DNA of 43,102 nt from Candidatus Uhrbacteria bacterium CG_4_10_14_3_um_filter_41_21 (GCA_002782865.1 PFJC01000004.1:1-43102); one strand, 5' to 3'; numbered from the stretch's first letter, positions 24,286-26,413 are shown. Notes: generated by a model from the letters alone, not told the origin. Numbers and translations are program-made.

Positions 24286-24744
24286 ATGGCAGACATTCAA
24301 AGAACATTAGTCCTTATTAAGCCGGATGGAGTTCAAAGAGAGCTAATCGGCCAGGTTATTGGTCGTTTTGAGCGAAAGGGATTAAAGCTTGTTGGGCTTA
24401 AGCTTTTAAGCTTAGACGAAACGATTTTGGCTGATCATTACGCTCACCATATTGGTAAACCGTTTTATGATAGTTTGGTTAAGTTTATGATGGAAACACC
24501 AGTAGTTGCTGTTGTTTTGGAAGGGAATGATGTTGTAAACGAAGTTAGAAAAGTTGTTGGTTCAACCAATCCTCGCGAGGCAGATGCGGGCACAATTAGA
24601 GCTGATTTTTCTATGGATGTTGCCGGAAACATAATCCACGCCTCTGATTCACCGGAAAACGCTCAGATTGAAATTAGTCGTTTCTTTAATGACGGGGAAG
24701 TATTTAGCTACAACAAGCTGACAGATCCATACATTTTTGGATGA
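24286..24744 (+). CDS. ndk: nucleoside-diphosphate kinase
   Basis: RTLVLIKPDGVQR, and NIIHASDS containing the catalytic His. Confidence 0.93.
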   Translation: MADIQRTLVLIKPDGVQRELIGQVIGRFERKGLKLVGLKLLSLDETILADHYAHHIGKPFYDSLVKFMMETPVVAVVLEGNDVVNEVRKVVGSTNPREADAGTIRADFSMDVAGNIIHASDSPENAQIEISRFFNDGEVFSYNKLTDPYIFG

Positions 24745-24769
24745 AAACCATAGTGTAAAGACTGTGGAA

Positions 24770-24800
24770 AAAGAGTGGACAAAATCCACTCTTTCTATTT
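24770..24800 (+). terminator. intrinsic terminator after ndk
   Basis: AAAGAGTGGA-CAAAA-TCCACTCTTT followed by CTATTT. Confidence 0.7.
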
Positions 24801-24831
24801 GCCATATGTTTTTGTGCAGGGGATAATATAA

Positions 24832-25063
24832 GTGCTTCATGGCGGTTGTATCGAAATTGGCTAATTTTCATTGAAAGGATCCAATCTTCAACCATCATCT
24901 GCGAGATTACGCAGTCTAGCTGTTTCCAAGTGGACGCAAGCGGGGATCCAGCGGTCGTCTGTTATGTGGACACGGTGTCTGGGCTAAGGCTCACACAACC
25001 GCGATCTGAATAACATTGCCCACATGTGGCAGAGGACCAGTTCCGATCTCCCGCCTGGAGCAC
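24832..25063 (+). ncRNA. candidate structured RNA of unknown class (~232 nt)
   Basis: 13-bp closing helix: GTGCTTCA(T)GGCGG at 24832-24845 pairs with CCGCCTGGAGCAC at 25051-25063. Internal hairpins include CTGCG-AGATTA-CGCAG at 24899-24914. It is GC-enriched relative to its surroundings. TAATAT lies at 24824-24829 and a hairpin plus T6 at 25061-25091. No credible ORF is present. Confidence 0.45.
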
Positions 25064-25117
25064 CAAAATCATCAGTGACCTGGTGTTTTTTGTTTGAGAT
25101 AGGTAGAATAATCAAGT

Positions 25118-26413
25118 ATGGAAAAACTATTCGTCACAGGCGGAAAGCCACTTTCCGGGACAGTCAAAATTGTTGGCGCGAAAAACGCGGCTTCAAAAAT
25201 GATTATTACTTCGCTTCTTACAGACGAAGAAGTGATACTTCATAATGTCCCACTTCAAAAAGAATCGGAAATTGCCAGAGAGATAATTGAAATGGTTGGC
25301 GCAAAAACTTCTTTGCATGATCATACGCTTACGCTTAGGTCGGAAAGAGTTGATGCCTCTTCAGTAAAAAAATTATCAAGAAAAAATCGCTTGTCGATTT
25401 TGGCAGTGGCGCCGCTGTTGCATCGGGTTGGCGAAGCTGAAGTTCCGCTACCGGAAGGGGACAGAATTGGACCACGGCCGGTTGATTTTCATGTCGAGGC
25501 TCTTAAAAAAATGGGAGCAAAAGTTGAAGATCAAGAGGATTGTTATAAGATGAGCGCGCCAAACGGACTGACAGGCGCGCTAATCGAATTGCCTTATCCT
25601 TCAGTTGGCGCAACAGAAACAATTTTGTATGCCGCTGTTTTGGCAAAGGGCAGAACAGTGATTAAAAATGCCGCCATTGAGCCGGAAATCATCTCACTTA
25701 TAATGATGCTGCAAAAAATGGGAGCGATTATTGAGCGTGGAGCCGGTCGCGATATTGAAATTATTGGAGTTGAAAAATTACATGGCTGTATTCACACAAT
25801 TTTGCCAGACAGATTGGAAGCAGCCTCGTATGCTTGTATCGCGCTTGCAACTCGTGGTGAAATATTTTGCGAAGGTGCAGGCCACAGCTCAATGATCACT
25901 TTTTTAAATGCAATTCGAATGGCCGGTGGGGAATATGAAGTTTCAGAAGACGGGATTTTGTTTAAAGGATCTGGCAAATATAAGGGTTTGCAACTTGAAA
26001 CTGAACCGCATCCGGGGTTTGCCACTGACTGGCAACAACCGTTTGTAGTAGTTTTGACCCTGGCCGATGGCACTTCAGTGGTACACGAAACTGTTTATCA
26101 AGAAAGATTTGGTTATACAAAGGTTTTAAACGAAATGGGCGCTGATATTAGTCTTTTTAATAATTGCTTGGGAGAGTTGCCATGTCGATTCAAAGATCAA
26201 AACTTTAAACATTCGGCAGTTATTAAGGGTCCTTCAAAGTTAAAGGCGACAAAAATGACTGTTCCAGATATTCGCGCCGGGCTAGCTTATGTGGCTGCCG
26301 CTTTGGCCGCTGAAGGAACTTCAGAAATCGACGGCGTTGAACATTTGGAACGAGGCTATGAAGATCTTTATGGTAAACTGGCTTCAATCGGGGCGGATAT
26401 AAGGGTTGAGTAG
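25118..26413 (+). CDS. murA: UDP-N-acetylglucosamine 1-carboxyvinyltransferase, Asp115 variant
   Basis: MEKLFVTGGKPLSGTVKIVGAKNAA N-terminus. The active-site loop reads LPEGDRIGPRPVD. Confidence 0.93.
   Translation: MEKLFVTGGKPLSGTVKIVGAKNAASKMIITSLLTDEEVILHNVPLQKESEIAREIIEMVGAKTSLHDHTLTLRSERVDASSVKKLSRKNRLSILAVAPLLHRVGEAEVPLPEGDRIGPRPVDFHVEALKKMGAKVEDQEDCYKMSAPNGLTGALIELPYPSVGATETILYAAVLAKGRTVIKNAAIEPEIISLIMMLQKMGAIIERGAGRDIEIIGVEKLHGCIHTILPDRLEAASYACIALATRGEIFCEGAGHSSMITFLNAIRMAGGEYEVSEDGILFKGSGKYKGLQLETEPHPGFATDWQQPFVVVLTLADGTSVVHETVYQERFGYTKVLNEMGADISLFNNCLGELPCRFKDQNFKHSAVIKGPSKLKATKMTVPDIRAGLAYVAAALAAEGTSEIDGVEHLERGYEDLYGKLASIGADIRVE

Follow-up and report, generated by a model that had tools for sequence, protein, structure and literature searches.

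The window analyzed here, a 43,102-nt stretch of DNA from Candidatus Uhrbacteria bacterium CG_4_10_14_3_um_filter_41_21 in which positions are counted from the first letter, contains ndk and murA and, between the ndk stop codon (24744) and the murA start codon (25118), a spacer in which only short ORFs occur; the ndk-murA gap without a credible ORF of the preliminary description is thus real. Within this spacer lies a candidate RNA gene with its own predicted transcription signals (Table 1). The predicted promoter is of the sigma-70 type, with 10 of 12 consensus matches, and its GATAAT element corresponds to the TAATAT box that had been recognized earlier. The predicted start, G24834, is located 7 nt past this box, and boxes resembling TTGC..-N17-GATAAT can be aligned 5' of all homologs described below, including the copies that lie on the opposite strand with respect to ndk. 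The hairpin and T-run already reported to follow the RNA form a predicted intrinsic terminator, which ends 27 nt 5' of the murA ATG, and a hairpin plus T-run is also found 3' of the RNA in most homologs. Judged from these predicted promoter and terminator signals, the RNA is an independent transcription unit. The RNA stretch has a G+C content of 52%, compared with 41% for the genome, in agreement with the GC enrichment previously noted, and the minimum free energy of the stretch is -96.3 kcal/mol (z = -3.5), a value reached by 0/200 shuffles. When the conserved helices are enforced, the RNA of the window folds at -79.4 kcal/mol, as compared with -84.5 kcal/mol for the unconstrained fold. No reading frame is shared among 26 homologs, in which the longest stop-free frame shifts both strand and frame, and the insertions and deletions among homologs are not multiples of three. 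A separate -10-like element, TAGAAT, is present 8 nt 5' of the murA ATG (window 25104-25118), with no obvious Shine-Dalgarno sequence; the murA mRNA may be leaderless or nearly leaderless, or may derive from read-through of the RNA terminator.

Table 1. Features of the ndk-murA spacer and of the RNA gene in the window
Feature	Position	Strand	Sequence or remark
ndk	24286..24744	+	Constant neighbor, outside the RNA
Promoter (predicted)	24799..24827	+	-35 TTGCCA 24799-24804, 17-nt spacer, -10 GATAAT 24822-24827
RNA gene	24834-25065	+	~232 nt
Rod 5' strand	24834..24862	+	P1a, bulged U24840, P1b, P1c, P2
P1a	24834-24839 / 25056-25061	+	GCUUCA / UGGAGC; closing rod
P1b	24841-24845 / 25051-25055	+	GGCGG / CCGCC; closing rod
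P1c	24850-24853 / 25044-25047	+	AUCG / CGAU; closing rod
P2	24856-24862 / 25034-25041	+	AUUGGCU / GGaCCAGU; long-range helix
Joiner J2/3	24863..24876	+	Single-stranded, ~13-14 nt; near-invariant 3' end (G)UGAAA before P3
P3 domain	24877..24949	+	Encloses P3a, P4, P5
P3	24877-24882 / 24944-24949	+	GGAUCC / GGAUCC; long-range helix
P3a	24883-24898	+	Variable stretch; hairpin there optional
P4 hairpin	24899-24903 / 24910-24914	+	CUGCG / CGCAG, loop AGAUUA
P5 stem-loop	24916-24943	+	
Joiner J3/6	24950..24956	+	AGCGGUC; near-invariant, unpaired
P6 three-tier hairpin	24960..25015	+	Base UGUUAU 24960-24965 / AUAACA 25010-25015
P6 tip	24980-24993	+	UGGGC-UAAG-GCUCA; invariant G24982.U24991 wobble
P7 hairpin	25018..25030	+	GCCCACAUGUGGC; small, loop conserved; then joiner AGA 25031-25033
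Rod 3' strand	25034..25061	+	P2, P1c, P1b, P1a
ACCA tail	25062..25065	+	Directly 3' of the terminal helix, then AAAA
Intrinsic terminator (predicted)	25070..25095	+	Hairpin CAUCAG-UGAC-CUGGUG (25070-25085) plus T-run UUUUUUGUUU

The two ends of the RNA pair with each other in a rod of about 25-30 bp, which opens into a four-way junction. A closing helix between GTGCTTCA(T)GGCGG (24832-24845) and CCGCCTGGAGCAC (25051-25063) had been proposed before; it forms as proposed and extends inward through P1c and P2, to a total of about 25 bp in this copy. The rod forms in 26/26 sequences tested, at -20 to -36 kcal/mol, and its middle covaries, with cognate duplexes averaging -10.3 kcal/mol and non-cognate duplexes -5.5 kcal/mol (0/10000 permutations, permutation tests being inflated by kinship among the sequences). 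For example, a G-C pair of P2 has become A-U in two homologs (L002 and L004), and in three genera (g3, g7, and g8) the P1 sequence is wholly different with the pairing kept. Long-range helices such as these were tested by our own scripts, the covariance models spanning the 5' half of the RNA only. Past the rod, the GUGAAAG of joiner J2/3 is retained even in the divergent forms of genera g3, g8, and g29. In the 38-sequence alignment, which was fitted to a covariance model and whose pair counts consequently lean towards structure, P3 is 100% paired, with 4/6 pairs changed on both sides (variants include GAAUCC/GGAUUC, GGAGCC/GGCUCC, and GAGUCC/GGACUC), P4 is 99% paired, and P5 is 83% paired, with 12/12 of its pairs covarying. 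Joiner J3/6 contains the invariant columns A117, C119, G120, and G121, and its CAGCG is retained in all variant forms. The shape of P6 recurs in 24 homologs folded individually (mean z = -2.6); its base strands give -9.1 kcal/mol as cognate and -5.3 kcal/mol as non-cognate duplexes (0/10000 permutations), its tip helix covaries, and the G.U wobble in the tip is present in 18/18 sequences. P7 is 93% paired, two of its pairs having changed on both sides, and no other block is as conserved in the BLAST matches. The internal fold of the preliminary description therefore stands in part. Its hairpin CTGCG-AGATTA-CGCAG, here P4, is real and covaries, and two of its other pairings are specific to the copy in the window: TTGAA..TTCAA (24871-24891) gives way to P3, which takes up GGAUCC 24877-24882, and the proposed pairing of GCGGTCGTCTG with CACACAACCGC gives way to the unpaired joiner AGCGGUC followed by P6. 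The long-range helices P2 and P3, as well as the RCCA tail discussed below, had been missed. A pseudoknot between the P4 loop and GUAAU was considered and rejected for lack of conservation in the P4 loop.

An alternative partner of the P2 5' strand is the stretch that adjoins it (GUAAUU-GGCC-AAUUAC, window 24854-24870), and this hairpin would exclude P2. It can be drawn as well in L002, L009, L019, L148, L163, L165-L167, and L170-L172, forms in about half of the homologs, and covaries across lineages (GUGAUU/AAUCAC, AUGUGAUU/AAUCACAU, and AUGGG/CUCAU). Such an alternative pairing may constitute a two-state switch, or it may have been left behind when the P2 3' strand was duplicated.

Taken over the whole fold, RNAalifold returned 37 pairs, 16 of which show compensatory changes. 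When 18 sequences were aligned with MAFFT, 43 pairs were 94% paired and 19 of them had changed on both sides (0/500 shuffles), and pairing falls to 28-47% when the partners are slid by 1-3 columns; in the 38-sequence set, the covariation score is 0.47 as against 0.18. The check proposed earlier, covariation in orthologous spacers, thus finds the helices kept by compensatory changes in 38 genomes, whose homologs keep the fold of the structured RNA of about 230 nt that had been suspected, and because these compensatory changes extend across genera they indicate selection on the fold. The Rfam scan that had also been proposed matched no known family: with Rfam 15, no family matched the RNA at its gathering score, none matched the 451-nt stretch from 24700 to 25150 at E<=10, and ten diverse homologs gave nothing at E<=5. 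The matches seen were chance matches, such as sraA on the ndk terminator. Literature searches did not retrieve any description of this RNA. Together, these data make it highly probable that the spacer encodes a real, independently transcribed, and so far undescribed family of structured RNA.

To define the distribution of this RNA, 301 nt were compared by BLAST with 60 relatives; many genera of the same family gave a single match in each genome, at 67-78% identity. The borders of the match (window 24820-25068) fall at the promoter and the closing helix, and a second copy was not found in the window's own genome. Sets of genomes were then searched with covariance models built from the 5' half in three rounds (R1-R3), with which distant homologs may be missed. 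In the same family (f1), the RNA was present in 24/36 genomes with R1 and in 35/64 with R2. A second family, f6, also of this order, had it in 3/9 genomes with R2, including 3/3 of genus g29. The remaining five families of the order gave 0/77 with R2 (0/65 for family f2 and 0/12 for the four others) and the rest of the class 0/147 with R1, these sets being samples, so that the absences hold for the genomes searched. Three weak class-level matches of R3 (E 0.025-0.038, above the cut-off of 0.01) were counted as false; none of them is next to ndk, one evidently falls within a chaperonin-like gene, and a second, perhaps also the third, seems to be coding sequence as well. Examination of the ndk loci of 80 other CPR and other genomes revealed no further homologs. 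A structured-looking, GC-rich spacer of about 300 nt is present after ndk in one differently named CPR genome (L050, 1960-2330), where CUGAAAG...CUGCG-loop-CGCAG resembles J2/3-P4; R1 and R2 do not recognize it.

In total, 38 single-copy homologs were collected, and ndk lies within about 1 kb of the RNA at 37/38 loci. In the window, as in roughly half of the loci, the RNA is placed directly 5' of murA, which would suit a cis-acting leader, i.e. a riboswitch or attenuator in which a sensor domain is followed by a terminator upstream of murA, but the constant neighbor is the upstream gene, ndk. The downstream side varies: murA does not follow within the locus in 7/18 loci and is about 700 nt away in an eighth, so that in at least seven loci another protein follows or the downstream gene is some 700 nt off, and where murA is not next, a different protein of about 430 aa follows the RNA. 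In one genome (G012), the RNA lies between ndk and murA with both genes on the opposite strand, and in another (G015) it runs opposite to ndk, in a locus that does not include murA. Moreover, two relatives (L049 and G008) have ndk, its terminator, and murA, with the two genes only 85 nt apart, and do not carry the RNA, and no alternative pairing with the terminator was seen. In view of the inverted copies and the varying downstream genes, the idea of a murA riboswitch was dropped as highly improbable.

The presence of the RNA is patchy within genera (1/2 genomes in g7, 6/14 in g8, and 4/17 in g3). This pattern, together with the clean empty ndk-murA site, the two inverted copies, and insertions in or beside three copies, is what might be expected if the RNA had come from a mobile or selfish element, cryptic or no longer existing, for example as a guide or scaffold that has lost its protein gene, and had become fixed beside ndk and begun to decay. 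The insertions comprise about 140 nt in the P5 loop (L145 of G014, at about 1400-1560), 40 nt in the P6 tip (L006 of G025, at about 1660-1700), and, downstream of the RNA end but ahead of the terminator, about 170 nt (L144 of G019, after position 1036). On the other hand, the RNA is always single-copy and at the same locus, and the loci read contain no flanking repeats and no nuclease, transposase, or reverse-transcriptase genes. A 24-base pattern of the RNA had no match in 2.9 million viral contigs, and a pattern scan of metagenomes yielded only four copies of an already known sequence and two chance matches. Since the compensatory changes discussed above also speak against it, we regard such an origin as unlikely, although the uneven occurrence within genera would also suit a relic in decay. 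Other natural variants are shorter: in two genomes of genus g9 the interior of P3 has been replaced by a 6-nt loop, which leaves the domain as a 7-bp hairpin and the RNA at 184 nt in total, and in the g8 form the 3' domain is greatly shortened. Peripheral helices thus grow, shrink, or vanish in sub-lineages, and the rod, GUGAAAG, P3, and CAGCG are constant in all variants.

Among known bacterial RNAs, the preliminary description had seen no likeness to RNase P RNA, SRP RNA, 6S RNA, or tmRNA by eye, and the Rfam searches agree with it; the RNase P RNA of the genome (RF00010, 163 bits) is on contig 45, with none at the ndk-murA locus, and its tmRNA is on contig 8 (12116-12500). The case of 6S RNA (SsrS, RF00013) deserves more attention. 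Like 6S RNA, the spacer RNA is encoded by a non-essential, stand-alone gene, about 200 nt long and equipped with a promoter and a terminator of its own, and its irregular end-to-end rod leads into about 14 unpaired nucleotides. If it were a highly divergent 6S RNA, the rod would mimic downstream promoter DNA and J2/3 would serve as the template strand, so that sigma-70 RNA polymerase would be sequestered. No 6S RNA was found with RF00013 in the genome at E<=1 or with the Rfam 6S model in 40 relatives, and because that model detects 6S RNA in only 5/14 control genomes, undetected 6S RNAs are to be expected. However, RF00013 gave no match at E<=10 on the 451-nt stretch or at E<=5 on the ten diverse homologs. 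The architecture also differs, since instead of a bubble between two rods there is a four-way junction in which the strand opposite J2/3 bears a hairpin of 55-100 nt (P6) and a second hairpin (P7), and the arm past the supposed bubble is dispensable in some lineages, being reduced to the 7-bp hairpin in the two g9 genomes. Furthermore, the RNA occurs in only part of one order, being missing from nearly half of its family and, bar one genus, from the other families searched, whereas RNA polymerase is universal. A 6S identity is therefore unlikely on present evidence.

A different set of comparisons is suggested by the 3' end. The terminal helix is followed by RCCA in about 17/26 typical copies, those of the second family included. 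RCCA is absent from about a third of typical copies (several of genera g4 and g5) and from all g3 and g8 forms, so that it looks ancestral but dispensable. A terminal helix of both ends followed by an RCC(A) tail is the arrangement recognized by RNase P and by the enzymes that act on tRNA 3' ends, and it is shared with 4.5S/SRP RNA and tmRNA. In Escherichia coli, 4.5S RNA is a long rod of paired ends with an RCC-type tail, and the lack of any Rfam SRP RNA elsewhere in the genome would leave room for a divergent SRP RNA of the 4.5S or scRNA type at this locus. However, the spacer RNA has no helix-8 motif, and RF00169 and RF01854 matched neither the stretch nor the genome, RF00169 also being absent from 61 genomes of the order (0/61). 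The protein side of the particle is lacking too: neither PF02978 (the M domain) nor PF00448 (the SRP54-type GTPase), and hence no Ffh/FtsY, was found in the window genome, and no DTAGR motif was found in any of its frames. PF00448 was detected in 14/14 control genomes and in 0/61 genomes of the order, with one weak partial match each in the samples from the class (1/61) and the phylum (1/81). Loss of SRP thus appears phylum-wide in the Patescibacteria genomes sampled (the window genome and 202 others), as already reported for Parcubacteria, which have lost ffh and ffs (Nelson & Stegen 2015, PMC4508563). The spacer RNA is, in addition, missing in half of the family. With the protein partner absent, the SRP RNA reading is refuted for practical purposes.

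The same terminal arrangement might point to a tRNA-like or tmRNA-like molecule whose RCCA end is aminoacylated and is then used on the ribosome or by a transferase. The terminal helix of 6+5 bp is followed by a discriminator-like purine and CCA, as at the ends of the tRNA genes of this genome, where CCA is encoded by 39/41 tRNA genes and by the tmRNA gene and is often followed by an A-run, and the RCCA end is conserved across two families. Nevertheless, ARAGORN and the Rfam models for tRNA (RF00005) and tmRNA (RF00023) found nothing at the locus, and the genome has its genuine tmRNA elsewhere. The strands of the rod run uninterrupted on both sides, which leaves no place for a T-arm or D-arm. 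There is no G3:U70 pair or other minihelix identity element either, and, in contrast to tmRNA, the RNA has no tag reading frame and no pseudoknots. The loss of the tail from at least a third of copies is also at odds with such a function, which we consider very unlikely. Also rejected was a pairing of the T-box type between the RCCA tail and UGGN of P2, because in the alignments the discriminator does not covary with N. Finally, a stem of paired ends combined with a tRNA-like feature recalls the Y RNA YrlA, the partner of Ro/Rsr, but here the tRNA-like part is a 3' tail and not an internal mimic of the T- and D-arms, the RNA is twice the size, and the genome has no Ro; with the TROVE/Ro domain (PF05731) absent from the window genome, the Y RNA reading was dropped.

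The closest general resemblance is to raiA, OLE, ROOL, GOLLD, and HEARO RNAs, which likewise have multiple helices around a conserved junction core, are restricted to particular lineages, and are known by comparative genomics only. In contrast to them, the spacer RNA has no match in Rfam 15 and occupies one chromosomal locus with no link to phages or transposons; it is also smaller than OLE, ROOL, and GOLLD. As an overall reading, we propose a gene of about 232 nt for a stable, trans-acting structured noncoding RNA, belonging to an undescribed family confined to Candidatus Uhrbacteria, and we rate the chances for and against this reading as about equal. The RNA would act in trans as a stable molecule, in which the invariant junction (GUGAAAG, CAGCGG, and P3) would be the working part. 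Most likely this junction would offer a specific surface to a protein, making up an RNP, and less likely it would be a pocket for a ligand or for catalysis; an RNP-type mechanism is plausible, if a little short of probable. The paired ends and RCCA would recruit the enzymes of tRNA end maturation and repair, namely 3' exonucleases, the CCA-adding enzyme, and possibly RNase P, which would define and protect the ends and thereby give a long-lived RNA, as is the case for 4.5S RNA and tmRNA. Because RCCA is missing from about a third of the copies and from the g3 and g8 forms, this end-maturation step is not essential to the function, and RNase P might find no extra 5' nucleotides to cut off, since the helix begins at the very base predicted as the start. 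The function itself is probably accessory rather than essential, because many genomes of the family do not have the RNA.

At a more speculative level, this RNA may be, though this is less likely than not, the core of a new RNP or ribozyme specific to a branch of the CPR, in which the junction, together with the invariant G.U of P6, would carry out a defined biochemical task, the ends would be handled by the tRNA machinery, and a pairing switch at P2 would be possible. Few bacterial RNAs combine many helices in a complex fold with a conserved junction core, and those of this kind whose function has been solved proved to be ribozymes, RNP scaffolds, or global regulators. The CPR/Patescibacteria are uncultivated organisms with tiny genomes that have lost standard RNPs such as SRP, and in a genome of about 0.9 Mb a structured RNA of 230 nt that is under selection is unlikely to be idle. 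From a practical point of view, 38 members, a testable structure, natural deletion variants, and RNA-free genomes are enough to seed an Rfam family, and they also suffice for phylogenetic profiling of partner genes and for biochemistry on in vitro transcripts.

Some further features of the tRNA genes of this genome were noted. A tRNA-like gene on contig 27 (13227-13304) was left by the caller with its anticodon undetermined. At 1678-1755 of the window, ARAGORN reports a tRNA-Thr whose anticodon, AGU, is uncommon in bacteria, and the Rfam score of this gene is 42.8 bits, compared with about 70 for its neighbors. Several tRNA genes of the genome share the 3' word CCGAGCTT, which suggests a shared downstream repeat or a processing signal following these genes.
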